From the NCBI GenBank assembly GCA_038087875.1, contig CM075988.1:4588001-4652000 (forward strand): DNA of 64,000 bases, in the 5' to 3' direction. The stretch is from Malacoraja senta. Lineage: Eukaryota. This document shows, one piece after another, positions 16,823 to 59,936 of the stretch; positions within the stretch are counted from its first letter, which is position 1; each line of letters opens with the position of its first letter. The notes beneath the pieces were generated by a model. The model was not told the DNA's origin. It searched no databases and saw only the letters and a list, made by a program, of their open reading frames with translations. Position numbers and translations under genes: made by a program.

Positions 16823-16876
16823 GGGGTGGGAGATTGCAACCTTCACGTGGTCCACCCAGTTTCGACTAATGCAATC
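16823..16876 (+). ncRNA. HDV-like self-cleaving ribozyme (predicted)
   Basis: P1 GGGGTGG/CCACCC(A), P2 GATTGCA/TGCAATC, P3 ACC/GGT, L3 TTCACGT, minimal P4 T-TTCG-A, J4/2 C-TAA; element order matches the HDV nested double pseudoknot. Confidence 0.75.
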
Positions 16877-16959
16877 AACCCGACGTGCACCAACAAATAG
16901 ATGTCATGTTTTGGTGTCTGCAGCTTTAGGCTGTGCACACCATACGCAAGAAGAAGAAG
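16823..16959 (+). mobile_element. Short non-autonomous retroposon, family A (Ingi/Vingi-like), with 5' HDV-like ribozyme
   Basis: Ends in GCAAGAAGAAGAAG; imperfect TSD tactatgtt (16814-16822) / cacaatgtt (16960-16968); second copy at 59821-59936. Confidence 0.8.
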
Positions 16960-19039: not shown

Positions 19040-20940
19040 ATGGAGGTAGGTGGGTTTGGTTCCTACCAGCATGTAAATGGGGAACTGTACTAACAGGAGG
19101 TGTCTCACGAATGATAGTTATATACTTAACAGTATTCGGGGATACAAAATAGAGTTCATTCACGAAAACATGCCACCAGTTCAGCACGTACCCAAAGGGT
19201 CTTTACCCTCTCAGTCAAAGAGAACTAGAGGCTCAAGCAGAACTGGTGAGGTTACTTACAAAGGGTGTCATTGAGAAATCCAAACATGATCCTTTGGAAT
19301 TTGTCTCAAATATATTTACCAAAAGTAAAAAAGATGGTGGATGTCGCATCATCATTGACTTAACCTCACTAAATACCTTTGTTAAGTATGTACATTTCAA
19401 AATGGAAACATTTGTAACTGCTAAACAACTGATTTCCAAAGGATACTTTATGGCAAGCATTGATCTAAAAGATGCCTACTATTCAGTACCCATTCACAAG
19501 GGTCATCGCAGATACCTGAAAATTTACCTGGATGGGGCAACTATGGCAGTATAAAGTATTGCCTAATGGGTTGACATCAGCCTTAGACTATTTACCAAGA
19601 TATTAAAACCAGCCTTGGCAACATTAGCGAAACAAAGACATATTGTCATGGCGTATCTTGATGATATCCTAATAGTTGGCAAAACCATGGAGTTGGCTAA
19701 ATCAGCTGTATTAGCTACCAAATAATAGTTTGAAACCCTGGGTTTGTCATACATCCAGATAAATCTAAGTTGACGCCATCCACAACTATGGACTATCTGG
19801 GATTCAATTAACTCAATCCACATGTCTGTAACGTTGCCAAAAGGTAAAGCAGCAGAATTGGCACAGATGTGCAACAATTTAATGGTAAGCAATCGACCAA
19901 CCATCCCACAAGTGGCAAGAGTAATTGGCAAAATGGTAGCAGCATTTTCAGCTACACAATTTGGACTCCTGCACTATCAGCACCTACAAAGGGCAAAAGT
20001 ACAGGCGTTGAAACGACATGCAGGTCACTTTGACAGATCCATGAAACTACCCATTGAAGCAATATCAGAGTTACAATGGTGCATATAACACATTTGGCAT
20101 AGTTCCAGCCCTATCATCATCAATAACCCAACGTTAACTATACAAACAGATGCCAGTGCTCAAGGCTGGGGAGCAACTAATACCATATCCAGCACAGGTG
20201 GTAGATGGACTAACCTAGACTCGTCTTTACTACAAACACTGGGCATAAATTATTTGGAAATGTTGGGTGCGTTTTATGGTTTTAAAGCATATTCTAGGAA
20301 TATGCACAACTTGCATGTTCATTTACAAATTGATAAATATCACGGTGGTGGCCTATATTAACCATATGGCCGGAATAAAATCGATATCATGTGACAATTG
20401 GGTCAACACAATCTGGTAATGGTGGGTCGATAGACATTTTTGGCTATCAGCAACTTACCTACCAGGTAAGCTAAATACAGTGCCAGGTCATGCAAATTCA
20501 ATGATAAACACCAAATGGATGTTAAATCCTAGAGCTTTGCTAAAATTACAAACCAATATGGCACACCAGATATCGATCTCTTTGCATCCAGACTAAATCA
20601 CCACGTACCAATGTATGTCCCTTGGGAACCACACCCTGAGGCAGCAGCGATAGATGCATTCGCGCTGAACTGGGGGACAGATTTCTTCTATGCTTTTTCC
20701 CCTTCTGCCTTAATCTGTAGGGTACTACGCAAAATACAGATGGACTCTGCTTCAGGTATTTTGATAGTACCAACTGGCCTACACAGCCATGATTCCCAGT
20801 GGTCCTCGACATGGTCATCGACACTCCTATGACCTTTCCCAGTAGCCCAGACCTATTGACGCACCCTGTATCAGGCATAAGTCATCCATGCCATGCCAAA
20901 ATTAACCTACTGGGTTGCAGATTATCAAAAGACCACTGCT
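19040..20940 (+). pseudogene. DIRS RT / RNase H / Dam-like methyltransferase (disrupted)
   Basis: RIIIDL, HFKMET, ASIDLKDAYYSVPI, AYLDD, QTDASAQGWG, INYLEML, PDIDLFASRLN, IDAFALNWG..FYAFSP motifs, with stops and frameshifts. Confidence 0.9.
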
Positions 20941-20984
20941 GGGACTGGGATTGTCTGACAGGACCATCAACATGATGACACCGT

Positions 20985-21900
20985 ATGTCCACCAGGAAAC
21001 AATACCTATCGAGCATCAGGAAGTGGGAAAGATACTGCTCGACTACTGGGACAACGTACTCATCTGCAACCATAACCAATGTACTGGAGTTCCTGGGGAG
21101 CCTTCACCATAATGAAGGATTGAGCTACAGCGCCATCAATACTGCCAGACGTGCGCTGTCAGCCTACTTAAAACAGGTGCCAGGACAACAGGCCATAGGG
21201 TCTCACCCGCTGGTGATCAAACTCATGAGGAGTATCGTCAACTCCAACCCTCTTAGACCTAGGTATACACAAATCTGGGATGTCAGTGTGGTCCTGACAT
21301 ACCTAAGGGGATGGTCCCCAGCCAGGTCTCTCACCCTGGAAAAGCTAACCCTGAAAACGGTCATGCTGATGCTACTAGTCTCAGCACAAAGAGTCCAGTC
21401 CCTCCACTTACTGCGACTGGACAACATGGTTATAACACCAGACCGGGTCTCATTCACCATTCAGGAGCTGCTAAAGCAGAGCAAGCCAGGAACTTGAGTC
21501 CTAGTTATGGATTTCCGGGCATACCCACCTGACCTACGGTTGTGTGTCATGACTCACTTATTAACTTACATCAACACAACAAGAGATTCTCGAGGGAGAA
21601 GGGAAAAAAAATATATATATATATAAATAAATAAATAAATAAATAAATTAAAAAGCCTTATGGGTCAGCCACAAGAAACCTCAAGGTTGGGTGTCGAGCC
21701 AAACCATCTCGAGATGGCTCAAGCAGGTACTGGGAGCTGCTGGAGTAGATACTGATGTATATACATCTCACTCCACCAGGGCAGCATCCACATCGGCGGC
21801 TAAAAGAATGAACATGGAGAAAACGTTCCAAACGTTCTACCACAAGCCGCTAGCAGAACCTGTGTTATTTGCAGAAAGAGTTTTAAAATCTGCAAAATTA
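20985..21900 (+). pseudogene. DIRS tyrosine recombinase (disrupted)
   Basis: LSYSAINTARRALS, RPRYTQIWDV, SAQRVQSL, KQSKPG, TISRWLK, HSTRAAS; microsatellite insertion at about 21600-21655. Confidence 0.9.
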
Positions 21901-23754
21901 TATAATTTAAGCCCGGGGGAGCATTTTGTCTTTTGTTATTGTTTAATAGATACCATTATTGTTTACAAACAGATTATGGTTGATTACGATAACATACTTC
22001 CTCCCTTGAATGACTTCGGCAGCGAGTGAAGTATGAACTGTTACACGGTTTGAAATCACAGAGCTTTGAAGTCTTCACGAAGTCACTCACGTGACTCCGA
22101 AGTAAAATAGTAAGATTAAACGAGAACTTACCAGTTTGAAGTTTGATCTGTATTTTATGAGGAGTTACGATGAGGGATTACGTGCCCTCCGCTCCCACCC
22201 TCAAATATATAGATCAACAGGTATCTTAGTTCTCCTTTTCTTTACTATGTTTATTTCAATTATTGTGTTTCCTGTGATTCCACACCGCTGCTTTGAAGAA
22301 TGTCGCGCATGCGTGCTGGACGGGGTCTTCACGTAATCCCTCATCGTAACTCCTCATAAAATACAGATCAAACTTCAAACTGGTAAGTTCTCGTTTAATC
22401 TTACTATTCTATTGCAGTTTTACTTGCTAATATTTAATTCCAGTTTGCCTGGATTAAATTAGTTCCACTATACTGTATATTCTAAAATATACATTACACT
22501 AAAATTAAGCTGATGCTGTACAGTTAATTTAAGTCGTTCAATCAGACAATGCCATGATCATTATTAACTCAATGTTCCCCAAAATTTGCCAAGATGGGTT
22601 TCCAGAACCAGAGTCAGTATTGTCTCAGACTAAACATGACTGAAACAAAGCAGAAAATGCTGGGAAAGGGACAGGGCCATAGATAGAAAGAGGAATAGGA
22701 CAACCCAGTGGCGCAGCTGATAGAGCTGCTGGCTCATTGCACCGAGGTTCCAGGTTCGATCCTGACCTCGAGCACTGTCCGTATGTAGTTTGAACATATC
22801 CCCTGTCTGAAGAATGGTTGCAACCCGAACGTCACCTACTCCTTTTCTCCAGAGACGCTGCCTGACCCGCAGAGTTACTCCAGCACTTTGTGTCTAACCC
22901 CTGTGACCGTGTGGGTTTCCTCCAGGTGCTCGTGTTTCCTCCTACATTCTAAAGATGTGAATTTGCAGGTTAATTGGCCTCTGTAAATTGTCCCTAATGT
23001 GTAGGGAGTGGGTGCAAAAGTGGGATGTCAGAGAACTAGTGTGAACGGGTGATCGGTGGTCGTCGTCAATTCAATGGCGGAAGGATCTGTTTCCATGCTC
23101 GTTGTCTAAACTAAACTAAACTAAACTAAAAGGGTCTCGACCTGAAACATCACCTGAAGAAAGGTCTCAACATGAAATATCACCTATTACTTTTTTCCAG
23201 AGATGCTGCCTGATCTGCTGAGTTACTCCAGCATTTTTTAGTTTAGTTTAGTTTAGTTTATTGTCACGTGTACCGAGGTACAGTGAAAAGCTTTTGTTGC
23301 GTACTAACCAGTCGGCAGAAAGACAATACATGATTACAATCGAGCCATTCACAGTGTACAGATACTTGATAAAGGGAATAATGGGAAAAAATGTTCAGTG
23401 CATTTTGTGCTTATCTTCAGTGCAAACTAGCATTTGCAGTTCCTTCCTCCAGATATTATGGATATTGCAATTATAGTGCAGAGATAGTTGACGAGTACAA
23501 TACACTCACTTGGATTTTTATATTCATGATTCAATTGCAATGCATAAATCTTGAAACTACTTCTGACCCCTGAATATAAAGTTAGCCCAGCTCTGCATCC
23601 ACAGATGACAGACACTAATCAGGGTCAAATAGGCAGCTCAACAACACGACATTACAATGACCTGAATAAAATTGACTGTAATTGTGTCTGTAATTTGGAA
23701 AAGGCAAGCATGCTATTAGAATACAGCAATGTGCACAACCCCATGAGAGTTATT

Positions 23755-32424: not shown

Positions 32425-33496
32425 CTCTCTCTCTCTCTCCCTCTCCCTCTCCCTCTCCCTCTCCCTCTCCCTCTCCCCCCAAAGACAATTGTAAAGGAAA
32501 GGTATAAAACCGTCAGTTTCCAACCTCAATTTTAGGGTTGAAATTGGATTGAAACTGGCCATGAGGGGTCCAACATTTTTTTTTAAATTGTGGAAAATTC
32601 CAGAGAAACAGATCGAATATGCGGGCTGAAAGTTGGTGGAAAATTCCGGCAAAAGTTGTTCAAACGGTAAACGCACAACCTTGTAGATGATGCACTGCTT
32701 TCAGCAGGCAAGGGTCAGGTGAGGGACCAGTCAGAGCAAATGTACACTTTACAGAAAACTCTTGTAAATCTGTATCTCCCTTTCAATGACTTCAGAGTTC
32801 TTTCAACTTGGATTCAAGGAAGCAAAAGTTAGTGGTGAAACAAGACCACTCTGCCTTCAGATTTTTTAAAACCTCAAATCATTTTTGACAGTTGCAAATT
32901 TTGTGCATATCTTTCATTCATTTGTTCTATACCTCTCTATATCACCGTCTATCCCTTTCCCCTGACTCATTCTGAAGAAGAGCCGAAATGTCACAAGTTC
33001 ACAAGTTATAGGAGAAGAATAGTAAGATTAAACGAGAACTTACCTAAGTTTGAAGTTTGATCTTTATTTTATGAGGAGTTACGTAGGTGATTACGTGAAG
33101 AACCCCGCCAGTGCGCCTGCACGTCAATCTTCAAAGCAGCGGTGTGAAATCACAAAAAACAACAACCGAAGTAATATAGTCTCTTAATAAAACGAGTAAT
33201 ACAAGAACTTCCATCTGACCTTTATGATAGAGGGTAGGGTCGTGGCGGGCACGTAATCACCTACGTAACTCCTCATAAAATAAAGATCAAACTTCAAACT
33301 TAGGTAAGTTCTCGTTTAATCTTACTATTTTACTTCAGAGTCACGTGAGTGACTACGTGAAGATTTTAAAGCTTTGTGATTTCATGCCGTAGATCAATCC
33401 CGGCTTCTCACTGCATAGATTGACTCGGAACGAGAATAATCAATCATGCATTCATAATAACATTTGTACCACAGATCCCCTTTAAACCAGAGGAAT

Positions 33497-34440
33497 TTAC
33501 ACAGAACTTAAAATAGTTTCTGCACACAATCCCGCATTAACAATAGGCCGTTGGTAAAAATGTTGAAACATCAACTCATTGGACCATCCAGCGGCTGCGA
33601 GGATATGGTCGACGGGGACGTCTTTTGCCCTGGCCGCCGACTTTTCTGCTGCCCTAGTCGAGTGAGACGTAAAAACATAAGTGTTAATACCAGCAGCTGT
33701 TAAGACTTCTTTTATCCATCTGGAAATAGTCTGTATTGAAACTCTCTTGTGTGGTTTCTTGTGTGTGATCAACAACCCAGTTTCCGTATTTCTCAAATTC
33801 TTTGTGACCTCAATGTATTGTAACAAATATGTCTTAATACAGAGGCAAGGATCATTTGGATATACTGCTAGCATAATTTTAAATCCTGTCACACCTGGCC
33901 TAATTTGCTTTAGTAGGTCATAGATATAGAATGTAACCTTGTCTTCAGTTACTTCCATACTGTCTATTTGTAATTTTCCAAGTGTTTGCACTCGTTGTGC
34001 TGTCACTCAAGCCATAAGCATGAATACTTACATACTGAGCTTGGCCAAAGGTAAAGACACACTTGATGACCATTCACAAAGTAGTTTCAGTACCACACTT
34101 ACATCCCAGATTGTCATGTACCTAGGTTTCAGTGGTTTGGAATTAAAGATTCGGTTCATTAGTCTGGAAACAATTGGGTGTGACCCAATTGGGTTTCTTT
34201 CTGAATCCAGAACCAAATATGAGGACAATGCACTTCTGGCTGAATTAATTGCACTACAACTCAGACCTTCATCATAATAAAGTTTTGACAGAAATTCTAA
34301 ACATTTGAAATATCTGCAGTACTTTATTGCACATTCTTTTGTACACAGAACTCTTCCCATTTCTTAATATAAGAAAGGTACTGTTTTTGAGTGCTCTTCC
34401 TCCAGGCTGCCGTAAGCATGTCCACAGTACTCTCAGACAG
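33497..34440 (-). pseudogene. DIRS tyrosine recombinase (disrupted)
   Basis: SAINSARSALS, KPRYMTIWDV, TAQRVQTL, TISRWIK, HSTRAA, GWS..FQHFY. Confidence 0.9.
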
Positions 34441-34463
34441 TCCTCGTCCCAGAAAAGGCATTC

Positions 34464-36280
34464 TTAAAACCTGCAAATCAACAAATCCAAACGATCATAT
34501 AATGGATGTTGTTCCCCTGTTACAGGGTGCAGCAATAAATTACTCCTTTTTGGGACTTTCATCAACATTTGTGTTGTTAATTCTAATATCAATGGATACC
34601 ATGGCTGTGTAGGCCAATTTGGTACTACCAATACCCTTGAAGCAGCATCTTGCCTGATTTTAAGCAAACATTGGCTTATGAGGCAGAAAGGTGGAAATAT
34701 ATATGAAAACATACCACCCCAATGTAGCGAGAAAGCATCAATCGCCACTGCTCCTGGGTCTGGTTTCCATGAGACATATCTCGATAGCTGATGATTCAAG
34801 TCGATGTCGGGCATTCCAAATCTGATTACTATATCATTGGATACCTCTTGATTCAACATCCATTCTTTATTATCATGGAACTTTCGTGACCTGGTGTCTG
34901 CTATCGTGTTCATTCTACCTGGTAGATAGATAGCTGAAATCCAAATGTTCTTTTCAATACACCAAGACCAAAGTTGATTTAACCATTTTGTCACATGACA
35001 CCGACTTAATTCCACCCATATCATTAATATAGGCAACTGCTGTTGTGTTTATTAATTTGAACTTGAACCTTCCTTTTAGTTGTGTTAGAACCATAAGCTT
35101 GGAGTCCATAGAAACCTCCTAAAAGCTCCAAATAGGTAATCCCCAATGTCTGCAGTAACAATAACTCTTCCTGATTCCATCTGCCTCCACAGCTAGATGT
35201 TAAGTCAGTTGCACCCCATCCTAGTGCACTGGCATCAGTTTGTAATATCATGGAAGGTTGTTCAATCAGCACTTTGCCTGAACTGCTTGAGATGTAGAAT
35301 CCACCACTGCAGATTAGAAACAGCATTTGTTGTTACTTGCATGGTTCTATCAAAATGACCAGCATTTACTCTCAGTGCCTGATCTTTGATTCTCTGCAGC
35401 TGTTGATAATGTAATGGTCCATACTGGACTGCTGGGAATCTACTCATTTTCCCAGTACTCGAGCCACCTGTCTGATTAGAGGTTTTTGCTCGTTTAACAG
35501 ATTACTGCAATCTTTAATCAACTCCACCCTTTTTTCACTGGGCAAAGTAATTTGCATTTGGGCTAAATCAATTGTGAACCCCAAATAATCAATCGAGGTA
35601 CATGTTTTTAACCTTGATTTCTTTAGATAAATTTAGAAACCCCCAAACTTTCAAAAGTTTGATTTCATTACTGCAACCGATGCTTCTGTTGACTGTTTTG
35701 TCCTTCCTATAATCAGGACATCGTCCAGGTATGCCATTAGTACAAGCCCCTGGCTCTCAGCAACCCCAGAATTGATTTTAACAATTTTATGAATATTCTG
35801 GGAGGGAACGTTAACCCATTAGGCAGAGCTTTGAACTGCCCTAATTGGTTCATCCATGTAAATTTAAGATACTTCATATCTTGCAAGTAAACAGACACTG
35901 AACAAAAGGATTCAGACTTGTCAAGTCTATAATAATCCTACATCCTCCATCCTTTTTTGATTGAGGGAATATATTTGACCCAAATTGGTGAATTTGGTAG
36001 ACTGATTCTTCAATAACACCTTTTATATATAGGGTTTTGAAGCGCAGCTTGAATCTCCATTACTTCGCAAAGTGGAGAGTTTTGCTAGGAACATGCTGGA
36101 CAGGCAAATCATAATTTGGATTGAATTCAATTCGAAATCCTTGTATATTATTCAGAATTACCACATCTGAAGTAATCTTCTTCCAATGTTTATAGAAGAG
36201 ACGTAATCTGCCTCCAACTTTTGGACTTAATCCAGTTAGTATGTTCCCATGAGAACCAGGTCCACCTACCTCTTGAGTCA
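34464..36280 (-). pseudogene. DIRS RT / RNase H / methyltransferase (disrupted)
   Basis: VGGRLRLFYKHW, ALPNGL, AYLDD, QTDASALGWG, YLPGRMNTIAD, DAFSLHW..YIFPPF, VVPNWPTQPWYP. Confidence 0.9.
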
Positions 36281-37420
36281 TTTGAGTATTCTGAGATCCC
36301 TGGATTCTCCCGGAAGCACCATCACTGGTTCTTACTCCCGCTGCAGGCCGCCAGCTACGTCCCTGCGTTGATGAGCAACTTGGTCCTGGTCTAGGATCCG
36401 TATGACGTCTGAAAGGATACTTCCTCTTTACAGACTTTGCAACCATTGATGTTTTTATCAATCCTGTTTTCGCTTCATCTTCCAACTCTTTAATACGTCT
36501 CCCGAGATCCTCTCCAAAGAGTAAGTTGGGTAATTGTATATTAATTGGTTTGCAGAGTGCTGCGTATTTCGGATTCATAGTAGGCCGTATAGCACCTTCC
36601 TCAGATAATTGATCTCGAAGTGGGTGCTGCATAGCAACCCCAGTGCTTCCTGATGCAACTTCGTCATCTCTTGGCAGTTATCTGCTATTCTGGTAAAAGC
36701 AGTTATTCCAGAACCCAGCAGCTTTAATATTCTCTGCAACTGATTCCAGATAATTTGGTTCACTGCTTCTGCTTTCAGCAACCCACAGTTACTTGGGGTC
36801 TCCTGCTTTCTTGCAGTCTCATCCATCTCCTGCTGTTCCAGCTGATGGTAAACCAAGTAATTTATTAAGGAGGCCAGTTCTTCTCCTAATGGCTCTCCTG
36901 ACCCTGACGGGGCAGCGAATCCTACTGCCAGGGGTGAAACATCTGGCAGCTGCCGTTCATCGCCTTGTACAGCCTCACCATCAGAGTCGGGGTCTGAAAT
37001 CTCATGACCCGTAGCACGCTCCTCATCCCTGAGGGTGCATTCCATCAGCCCTGTACCAGGTGCTGTTGAGCTGCTTCCAGCAGCTTGGATTTCAGTACAC
37101 TCCTTCCTGAGTGAACTTTGCTCCAACAGCCTATGTAAAAGGCTTTCTATTTGGGCAATACGCTCGAAAGCAGTATCAAGCCCTGGAGCTACTTCCATTG
37201 CCTGGGACTCCCTCCATGGGCCATTGGGATTTAAACGTTGTCTTTTGCCCGACAGGCGCTGACTGTGTTTTCACCAGCCCCAGGTCCACAGTCGCTATGC
37301 TCACCGCTGGCGACTGTACCGGGGTTTAGAGGCGGTTGGTCTCTAACCGCGGACTCCAGACTTTTCCGACTTTCTGTCGGCTGTGTCGCTCGCCTCTTCT
37401 CCCTGTCCGTTTTTTCCCAT
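36270..37420 (-). pseudogene. DIRS gag-like ORF
   Basis: ORFs 36575-37198 and 36060-36632 (LLFGEDLGRRIKEL). Confidence 0.7.
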
Positions 37421-37931
37421 GGCGTCTGTGGAAAAAATCCCCACAGATCCACAGTAAACGGACCTGGAAGACATGAAAAAAGTTTCTACTTACCTTGTAG
37501 TTGAAAAACTACAAACCACTGGAGGAGCTCTGCTCCTCACGTCCGTTTGCGTCAAGGCGTCTGACATAATGACGCGCAGGCGCACTGGCGGGGTTCTTCA
37601 CGTAGTCACTCACGTGACTCCGAAGTAAAATTAGGTCATTCGTCCCGTCGAGTCTTCTTAGCCATTCAGTCATGGCTGCTCTCAGCCTCCTAATCCCATT
37701 TTCCTGCCTTTTCCCCATAACCCTTGACCCCTGATCTAGTCAAGAATTTGCCTAATTCCACCTTTAAAATATCCACCGACGTCCTCCACAGCCCTTTGTT
37801 GCTTTTCTCCAGTGATGCTGTCTGACCCGCTGAGTTGCTGCAGCCTTTTTGTGTCTATCTTCAAATAAATGTATCATGCAATCTTAACAGAAGTCAAAAT
37901 ACTTGATCAATCTTCAGCAGTGGATGAATAA

Positions 37932-48180: not shown

Positions 48181-48396
48181 TGTTTTGTAAAGCCTCACTC
48201 GTCTTTCTCTCCTCCTTCAGACCAAACTCCATTTGTCAAGTTTTTGTTCACTGCCCTTCCTACCACTTTCCTGCGTGGGGAATGGATGAGAAAGTGGGAT
48301 AACGTGGAACTAGTGTGAACGGGTGATCGATGGTCGGTGTGGACACGGTGGGCCAAAGGATCTGTTTGCATGCCGCATCTTTAAACTAGTGGTAGT

Positions 48397-48574
48397 GCTT
48401 CTTCATCTTATCGAGCCCACACACAAGATTAGAAGTTGTTCAGCCTGAGCTGAACACACTTCTCGGCATCTGCCTTCAATGGTGTCTGCCTTGCGCTTCT
48501 TGTGCTTCTTGTACGTGGTGGTGGAAAGATTGGTGGAAACAGGGCTGCGACGTGAATGCTCTTTCCTTGACCCC
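48397..48574 (-). mobile_element. Short non-autonomous retroposon, family B (Vingi-like), with 5' HDV-like ribozyme
   Basis: TSD agtggtagt (48388-48396 / 48575-48583); minus strand starts GGGGTC AA GGAAAGA GCA TTCACGT CGC AGCCCT G TTTCCA C CAA TCTTTCC; AAG tail. Confidence 0.8.
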
Positions 48575-49119
48575 AGTGGTAGTTCTGTACCCACCACTAC
48601 CACCTCCTCTGGAAATTGTTTCCATCTACCTACCACCCTCTTATTGAAAGATTTGTTCTTCAGGTCCCCCTTTAAATCTTCCCTTCTCATCTTAAATTTA
48701 TGCTCTTCAGATTTGGGTTATCCTCCCCTAAAGAAAAAAACTGTGGCTGTCTACCCTGTCTATACCCCTCATCCTCTGATAAGCCTCCTTAAGTTCACCT
48801 GTCACCCTCCTTCACTACAGGGAAAACAGCTAGCATATATGCTCATCACTTAAGTTCTGCATCAATGCATGGTACAGAAGCATTATCCAATATAGAGCCC
48901 AGTTTAGTTTAGTTTAGTTTAGTTTAGTCTAGTTCAGAGATACAGCGCGGAAACAGGCCCTTCGGTCCACCGAGTCTGAACCGACCAGTGACCCCCGCAC
49001 ATTAACACTATCCTACACACACGAGGGACAATTTACATTTATACCAAGCCAATTAACCTACAAGCTTGTACGTCTTTGGAGTGTGGGAGGAAACCGAAGA
49101 TCTCGGAGAAAACCCACGC

Positions 49120-58934: not shown

Positions 58935-59108
58935 CTTCTTCTTCTTGTTGAGTCCACACTCAAGATTAGAAGTTGTTCAGCCAGAGCTGAACACACTTCT
59001 CGGCATCTGCATGCAATGGTGTCTGTCTTGCAGTTGTGCTTCTTGTGCGTGCTGGTGGAAAGATCGGTGAAAACAGGGCCGCGACGTGAACACTCTTTCC
59101 TTGACCCC
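58935..59108 (-). mobile_element. Family B retroposon copy with 5' HDV-like ribozyme
   Basis: 12-bp TSD with 2 mismatches (58923-58934 / 59109-59120); minus strand GGGGTC AA GGAAAGA GTG TTCACGT CGC GGCCCT G TTTTCA C CGA TCTTTCC; (AAG)n tail. Confidence 0.8.
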
Positions 59109-59820: not shown

Positions 59821-59936
59821 TCTTCTTCTTGCGTATGGCGTGCACAGCCTAAACAACCTGTTCTGTTTGATCTTCTGTTTGTGCACGCCAGGTTGATTGC
59901 ATTCGTTGAAACAGGGTGGTTGCAATCTCCCACCCC
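59821..59936 (-). mobile_element. Family A retroposon copy (ribozyme lacks P3/L3 through a ~12-nt deletion)
   Basis: Perfect 11-bp TSD accatttgttc (59810-59820 / 59937-59947); (AAG)n tail; homologous to 16823-16959. Confidence 0.8.

Follow-up and report, generated by a model that had tools for sequence, protein, structure and literature searches.

The closest described counterparts of the repeat analyzed here are NARTc, RIME and SIDER, short non-autonomous derivatives of trypanosomatid L1Tc/ingi elements, a sister clade of Vingi, which carry an HDV-like fold (Pr77) at base 1 and the tail of a related APE-type LINE (PMC4035085). Heads of L1Tc/NARTc and SIDER cleave in vitro, and some SIDER heads with adequate folds gave no cleavage (PMC4035085); RNA release followed by target priming has been described for L1Tc/NARTc and for R2 derivatives (PMC4035085, PMC6765202). 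Bipartite derivatives that retain the 5′ and 3′ ends of RTE, Ingi, Vingi and R2 LINEs and lack the middle are also on record, and Vingi-1_EE is named as having many of them (Kojima 2018, PMC5786205). Vingi elements are characterized by a single ORF encoding an APE endonuclease and a reverse transcriptase (RT), with no RNase H (PMC13708176). Minimal HDV-like (drz-Mtgn) and theta ribozymes have no P4, a short J1/2 and L4, and the catalytic C as first base of J4/2, and nearly 99% of them occur in Caudoviricetes phages, often after tRNAs (PMC10879173). The mammalian CPEB3 ribozyme (RF00622) is a single-copy, intronic, conserved sequence with a 7-bp P1 and a P4; the available text describes it as unknown outside mammals and calls an outgroup missing (PMC8233481).

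The window, i.e., the whole 64-kb stretch of DNA analyzed here, contains two copies of a short element of ~175 nt, family B, whose initial 52 nt conform to a P4-less double pseudoknot of the HDV-like type (Table 1). Family B resembles NARTc, RIME and SIDER in its size, in the fold at base 1 and in its LINE-derived tail, but differs from them in its vertebrate-type host, a parent without RNase H, a 52-nt head without P4 and an (AAG)n tail, and is known here from its sequence. The features of a bipartite non-autonomous LINE, a 3′ end taken from an autonomous LINE and target site duplications (TSDs), are present. Family B shares with the minimal HDV-like ribozymes the absence of P4; theta ribozymes lie in phage genomes with the cut site at a tRNA 3′ end, whereas G1 of B follows genomic TSDs in a 1.9-Gb eukaryote genome, and B heads a vertebrate retroposon in thousands of copies. 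The CPEB3 ribozyme has P3, L3 and a one-pair P1.1 in common with B, which lacks its 7-bp P1 and its P4 and whose window copies score below the RF00622 cut-off. The best explanation of these observations, to which we assign a probability of about 0.72, is that B is a short non-autonomous element with a Vingi-like 3′ end and a P4-less HDV-like head that would free its RNA from host read-through transcripts at the first G.

Table 1. Positions of family B and family A copies and of their parts within the 64-kb window.
Feature	Position	Strand	Remarks
Family B copy 1 (flagged)	48398..48574	-	177-base repeat
Copy 1, 5′ TSD copy	48575..48583	-	9 nt perfect, 12 nt with one mismatch; adjoins G1
Copy 1, HDV-like head	48523..48574	-	52 nt; two pairs broken through CpG decay
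Copy 1, P1	48569-48574 with 48541-48546	-	
Copy 1, P2	48560-48566 with 48523-48529	-	
Copy 1, P3 and L3	48557-48559 with 48547-48549; L3 48550-48556	-	
Copy 1, J1/4 and loop	J1/4 48539-48540; loop 48534-48538	-	5-nt loop replaces P4
Copy 1, J4/2	48530-48533	-	predicted catalytic C at 48533
Copy 1, purine-rich middle	48476..48522	-	short repeat units, variable in number; presumed parent 5′ UTR
Copy 1, LINE-derived 3′ part	48410..48475	-	final ~13 codons of parent ORF (stop 48429-48431) and 3′ UTR
Copy 1, (AAG)n tail	48398..48409	-	common to parent LINE and most Vingi-like families here
Copy 1, 3′ TSD copy	48388..48397	-	
Family B copy 2	58935..59108	-	
Copy 2, head	59057..59108	-	every stem pair intact; predicted catalytic C at 59067; RF00622 28.0 bits (cut-off 35)
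Copy 2, remainder	58935..59056	-	middle; LINE-derived 3′ part from ~59012, stop 58966-58968; (AAG)n from 58946
Copy 2, TSD		-	11 nt, one mismatch
Family A copy	16823..16959	+	P4-less fold, other stems, 7-bp P1, other tail
Family A-type copy	59821..59936	-	12-nt deletion removing L3 and half of P3

The segments named by the first-pass annotation are all located on the minus strand where it had placed them. Read from 48574, the flagged copy comprises a 6-nt P1 strand, a 2-nt J1/2, a 7-nt P2 strand, P3 and the TTCACGT loop, and then the strands that complete P3 and P1, G-T, a 5-nt loop, CCAA and the strand completing P2. The annotated P1 is present but comprises only 6 bp in B, two of them G.U (7 bp in family A). 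Preservation of pairing holds fully for the copy beginning at 59108, which is 88% identical to the flagged copy, whereas the latter has A.C at the top of P3 and C.A at the top of P1 and would probably cut poorly. The original P3 had been deduced as GCG/CGC from GTG and GCA, in keeping with CpG decay, and this is indeed the majority among 68 complete genomic copies, which restores the top pairs of both P3 and P1 (C17 in 94% and G18 in 85% of copies); CpG decay thus accounts for the variants in the window. The six nucleotides taken for a P4 remnant exist but are the second base of J1/4 and the 5-nt loop, and the C-C-R-A motif is kept in B, whereas A has C-T/G-A-A.

With P1, P2 and P3 nested in HDV order together with P1.1, the head has the HDV-like feature set described in PMC6326823, although it has a non-purine at the second J4/2 base, where the design descriptor of that source calls for a purine. 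The HDV-like core, G1.U, L3 TTCACGT and J4/2 CCAA, is present in the B majority and intact in 60 of the 68 complete copies, and the first J4/2 base is C in 64 of them and in all of 11 families compared. Canonical HDV-like P1 helices have 7 bp. Family B departs from the canonical form in its 6-bp P1 as well as in the absent P4 helix; nine of the 11 families have a 7-bp P1, the remaining two, B and F, having 6 bp.

A structural descriptor run over the window gives exactly three matches, at 59108(-) and 16823(+, family A) without mismatch and at 48574(-) with two, compared with a single match, and no compact one, among 60 dinucleotide shuffles, in agreement with the initial proposal of a second family sharing one fold. 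No Rfam model matched within the window at its gathering score: against the RF00622 cut-off of 35 bits the flagged copy scores 21.8 and the second copy 28.0, and some B variants pass it (B gives 21.8–31.6 bits, one variant 43.7). Single-strand folding, which does not model pseudoknots, yields z-scores of 0.07–0.85 and no signal, and in a nested model a competing pairing joins bases 3-5 of B with 53-55 at ~1 kcal/mol better than P1 plus P3. The absent folding signal and the lack of an Rfam match in the window at gathering score would accord with chance pairings in a repeat rich in G and C runs. This is scarcely credible, given the descriptor results relative to shuffles, the Rfam scores of sister families, and covariation both across families and in pair counts, and it is the cross-family covariation that refutes it; the fold of B is almost certainly real.

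This covariation is apparent already between A and B, in which nine of 16 stem pairs are changed on both sides, seven are the same and none is broken, as anticipated by the first reading of these stems as replaced with pairing preserved. Majority head strings of 11 families (A, B and nine autonomous Vingi-like families) form 173 of 185 stem pairs, whereas strands combined across families pair in 1198 of 1832 cases (65%); none of 20,000 permutations reaches the observed 173, a count that overstates independence, the families being related and not independent trials. Some of the 12 missed pairs can be traced to families with few copies or truncated ones (D, G, J and K). For P1 and P3 of eight natural copies, a pair-count tool (P2 was omitted because the alignment misplaces it) reports 97% pairing and double changes in five of ten pairs, versus 42–60% pairing in slid controls. 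The first pair of P1.1 is C-G in all 11 families; its second position is U.U in eight and C-G in three, both strands switching together. The L3 U and G, the J4/2 C and the P1.1 C-G are kept in all 11 families while the stems turn over. Inspection by eye added a twelfth head-bearing family (L220).

Full-length elements, several with open frames of 940–1,014 aa, were reached by an N-terminal protein search, and autonomous relatives do carry the fold, a point on which the initial proposal had been left to stand or fall: the topology is the same from the first base, with other stems and 15–43 nt forming a real P4. Every autonomous head seen has a P4, and both high-copy short families, A and B, are without it. 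Of 13 family-C heads, ten have G1 as their exact start. Because the Vingi-like lineages of this genome carry such a head in general, B and A would most likely have inherited theirs from their parents. Two intact family-C LINEs (L159 and L164, ~1266–1400 in element orientation; G000 C8:937.6 kb and C4:35.49 Mb) begin with the initial 26 nt of the head repeated 3–5 times in tandem, followed by one complete head.

The copies bear the marks of insertion. TSDs of 8–16 nt flank 49 of the 68 complete B copies versus two of 68 with swapped flanks, and with a more stringent rule 24 of 33 copies have a TSD that ends at G1, and seven have one that ends a base away. The annotation that G1 abuts the TSD in both window copies is accurate for the flagged copy, with its perfect 9-nt TSD, but in the second copy one T intervenes. 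A T immediately precedes G1 in 41 of 68 copies of B and in 18 of 31 copies of A; a ribozyme preference for T at -1 was considered and rejected, this base mostly following the last base of the TSD. Among 30 Rfam-hit loci, ten have an inverted ORF piece joined within ~40 nt of the head start, a twin-priming pattern. The family-C starts and these twin-primed joins show that the RNA began at G1, as either cleavage or initiation would produce equally. Once inserted, the copies decay: 32 of 68 keep all stem pairs and the core, and non-CpG divergence is 2.1% in the head versus 2.4% in the rest, indicating no selection on inserted copies. The head shows less CpG decay than the rest (7.0% versus 13.3%), which may reflect selection on source elements or search bias. 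The earlier suggestion of selection on RNA structure therefore holds across lineages and source elements, and not for inserted copies.

Genome searches returned 1,720 and 1,736 first-look candidates for two B queries and 2,481 for family A (40 scored in each case); the loci fetched contain 107 distinct B matches, 68 of them complete at both ends, a set biased toward the best matches. As no B copy (and three A copies) occurred in 399,600 bases sampled at even steps, B probably numbers a few thousand copies, fewer than about 15,000. The element is contained in six DNA-type sequencing runs from four organisms, and no RNA run was listed among those containing it. Both window copies recur at 100% identity with the same flanks on contig C866 (G000), which is probably a duplicated haplotig. 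No host gene was recognised within the 64-kb window. It also holds tyrosine-recombinase (DIRS-like) retroelements with RT and integrase pieces at 19153-22400 (+) and 33093-37700 (-), and four other TTCACGT matches in the window lie at or near the ends of DIRS-like elements and are unrelated to the ribozyme. The presence of young tyrosine-recombinase elements speaks against a mammalian host, whose repeats appear to resemble those of cartilaginous fishes instead.

The last ~75 nt of B derive from a Vingi-like LINE found in the same genome. Tail and parent are identical in 51 of 54 columns, followed by a one-base gap, and a pattern anchored in the tail with the head excluded gave 244 matches, seven of the 100 listed running upstream into an ORF; the parent ORF ends in a Cys/His motif and DAEKCVQLWLNNI. 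Of the peptide first noted as resembling a LINE C-terminus, only DAEKCVQL(W)LNN is LINE-derived; the parent has NE where KA was read, and the R is a mutation of the copy. A marker of the parent ORF matches 59 times in the genome. The parent copies are 5′-truncated and broken and jointly cover residues 166-982 of the closest public protein (P0011), to which the pieces are colinear with 64–84% identity each. A frame related to the parent retrieved 438 proteins, the best 120 of which are mostly 900–1,050 aa long and for the most part contain APE and RT. Only Exo_endo_phos and RVT_1 exceed the Pfam cut-off in the 987-aa open frame of family C and in the public proteins P0011, P0006 and P0036, and Pfam detects no RNase H in the full-length Vingi-like proteins scanned; the label 'ribonuclease H' on a UniRef cluster member is not backed by Pfam. 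This architecture, rather than a labelled reference, is what the parent's class rests on, and it matches the description of Vingi, so that the parent would be a Vingi-like LINE; an unlabelled Anolis protein in the same tree (P0036) is likewise presumably Vingi. L154:4500-5590 is an LTR-type pol-like fragment located directly before a fragment of the B parent.

The B-parent protein is sister to families C and G, with SH-aLRT 94 in a first tree, not finished in careful mode and with the J row displaced by a long branch, and 0.95 in a second tree, from which two long rows (x_L221 and x_L224) were left out. The best match of the B head among the heads compared is that of family C (84% over 36 nt). 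Searches toward the 5′ end of the parent did not arrive there: a DNA walk gave three matches, the parent copies reaching back only to ~residue 166; an N-terminal protein search, ~56 of whose 150 scored places were inspected, led to other families; all three matches of a P4-bearing B head pattern (non-TT variants) are mutated short copies; none of seven picked from the 100 listed matches of an exclusion pattern (319 in all), nor one other candidate, led into the parent ORF; and a metagenome scan gave one locus, without a 5′ end. That these searches found no LINE copy with the B head would be consistent with a chimera, in which the head was captured by template switching from another Vingi-like family or other RNA and joined to the parent tail, and tail exchange among such elements is described in the accessible part of PMC5786205. 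Such an origin is nevertheless quite improbable in that the head likeness follows the protein tree, a short family-J copy (L239) carries its own head and tail, and parent copies are few (59 markers) and broken, so that a missing 5′ end is expected. Family B is very probably a bipartite LINE derivative. The proposed internal deletion of a Vingi element is sustained for the tail, which comes from a single-ORF APE and RT LINE; for the head we infer it, and the name Vingi comes from architecture.

The short family-J copy L239 (G000 C3:83740660), comprising a head, a brief UTR, an ORF end and a tail, makes an internal deletion directly visible, and its head is the most CPEB3-like. In both trees the Vingi-like families of this one genome fall at separate places among proteins of urchin, lancelet, starfish and icefish. 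Family F has an urchin protein as its neighbor, and the B parent is placed close to one from icefish and to a cluster that includes a hagfish sequence; these positions suggest repeated horizontal transfer.

If the head is a ribozyme, a source copy would be transcribed from an upstream host promoter, its head would adopt the nested double-pseudoknot fold, and the first base of J4/2, a C, would cleave 5′ of G1. The last ~75 nt and (AAG)n, which match the parent LINE, would then recruit its APE-RT protein, and promoter-independent release of the RNA would be followed by target-primed reverse transcription by that protein. Insertion leaves the 8–16-nt target duplications, with copies beginning at or next to G1, after which they decay neutrally, about half keeping every pair. 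The source elements are likely to have cleaved themselves.

Alternatively, the fold may be real but non-catalytic in B, acting in 5′ protection, protein binding or as an internal promoter, with transcription starting at G1. The features that count against cleavage would fit this alternative: P1 is one pair short and contains two wobbles, P4 is absent, and there is a competing pairing. In addition, the Pr77 head of trypanosomes serves as a promoter as well as a ribozyme (PMC4035085), and an R2 fold is described as cap-like protection (PMC13708176). No start pile-up at G1 occurs among 260 reads of one polyA RNA run from another organism, 66 of which run past the 5′ end; the data are from a fragmented library with both strands mixed and represent 6% of the run, and they weigh little because the reads derive from copies lying in either orientation within host transcripts. 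The family-C head has no reads in this run, which carries no weight either way. We regard a non-catalytic head as unlikely, considering that the core bases of J4/2, L3 and P1.1 named above are retained by all 11 families despite stem turnover, that A has the same P4-less form with unrelated stems, that P4-less HDV-like ribozymes are active (10.1101/2023.06.13.544163, available portion), and that a primary sequence that is not conserved fits a promoter poorly.

Several observations concern family A in its own right. No parent was recognised among the elements fetched. The deletion in the copy at 59821-59936 lies between short direct repeats and a TSD is still present, so that the fold was either already broken when the element was copied or lost this segment afterward. 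A subfamily (e.g., L067, L234, L273 and L298) has U.G in place of a P1 U-A pair and CGAA as J4/2, with the fold kept and a different middle, which points to several deletion events. One family A copy (L139:554-690) lies antisense within the 3′ region of a family-B parent LINE.

Likeness to the CPEB3 ribozyme is greatest among the autonomous families. A genome search with RF00622 scored 59 of ~102,000 candidates, of which 51 matched and 39 passed the cut-off; none of 14 control genomes gave a match. Families C, G, J and K pass it, sister families reaching 59.7–64.2 bits, and scores of 63.8 and 59.7 bits are obtained for the family-C heads, which a protein search had identified. The majority string of family J (five copies, tied to Vingi-like ORF pieces) agrees with the RF00622 consensus at 59 of 67 positions by hand count, with one inserted base, a likeness partly selected for since the copies were picked by the RF00622 model itself. 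Two of the eight differences form a compensated P2 pair and three lie in the P4 loop. The 7-bp P4 stem of J is identical to that of the consensus; because every other family has a different P4 and the close group does not share five of the stem's pairs, a chance match is estimated at roughly 1 in 1,000 per family. These comparisons suggest that the CPEB3 ribozyme may derive from a Vingi element, and the direction from element to CPEB3 is simpler because the tree over which Vingi-like heads are spread includes urchin, lancelet, fish and insect proteins.

Instead of descent, the likeness might reflect convergence toward a small catalytic core. In favor of this, the motif is short and rich in G, the J and K copies were chosen by the Rfam model and hence for likeness, 39 hits of a J-lineage protein search include no named amniote or mammalian relative, and the comparison uses the Rfam consensus in place of a mammalian sequence. 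We consider convergence possible but the less probable account, as the likeness extends to positions free to vary, including the identical P4 stem, family C passes the cut-off though it was found via protein, and family A has no listed RF00622 match, indicating that the core alone does not score. We lean slightly toward a joint reading in which the whole Vingi clade would use HDV-like 5′ ribozymes, its most successful short derivatives would carry the first P4-less ~52-nt version seen in a vertebrate genome, and the CPEB3 ribozyme would be a domesticated Vingi 5′ end from near family J.

Ribozyme-headed short LINE derivatives are already known. The 'Ingi' of Ruminski 2011 may cover elements now classed as Vingi. 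The literature searched, in its accessible portions, places no ribozyme in Vingi and contains no paper linking CPEB3 and Vingi, and Repbase, Dfam, patents or supplements may already record Vingi heads; the general idea of domestication is in print without a named donor (PMC7761336). What is new relative to that literature is that the carrier is the Vingi clade, that a vertebrate repeat has a form lacking P4, and that the CPEB3 ribozyme gains a candidate donor.

The 11–12 heads from one genome constitute a natural covariation set that includes the P1.1 pseudoknot pair, and the B head, a natural candidate ribozyme of very small size, could be assayed at little cost. Gene-writing platforms employ Vingi-1_Acar with its native 5′ UTR retained (PMC13708176), and template design would be affected if this UTR held a self-cleaving fold. 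The CPEB3 ribozyme has been tied to memory. Vingi-like heads supply the outgroup missing for work on it (PMC8233481) and a likely donor, making the question of its origin testable. For the host itself, thousands of copies that may still cleave could cut pre-mRNAs when they lie in the sense direction.
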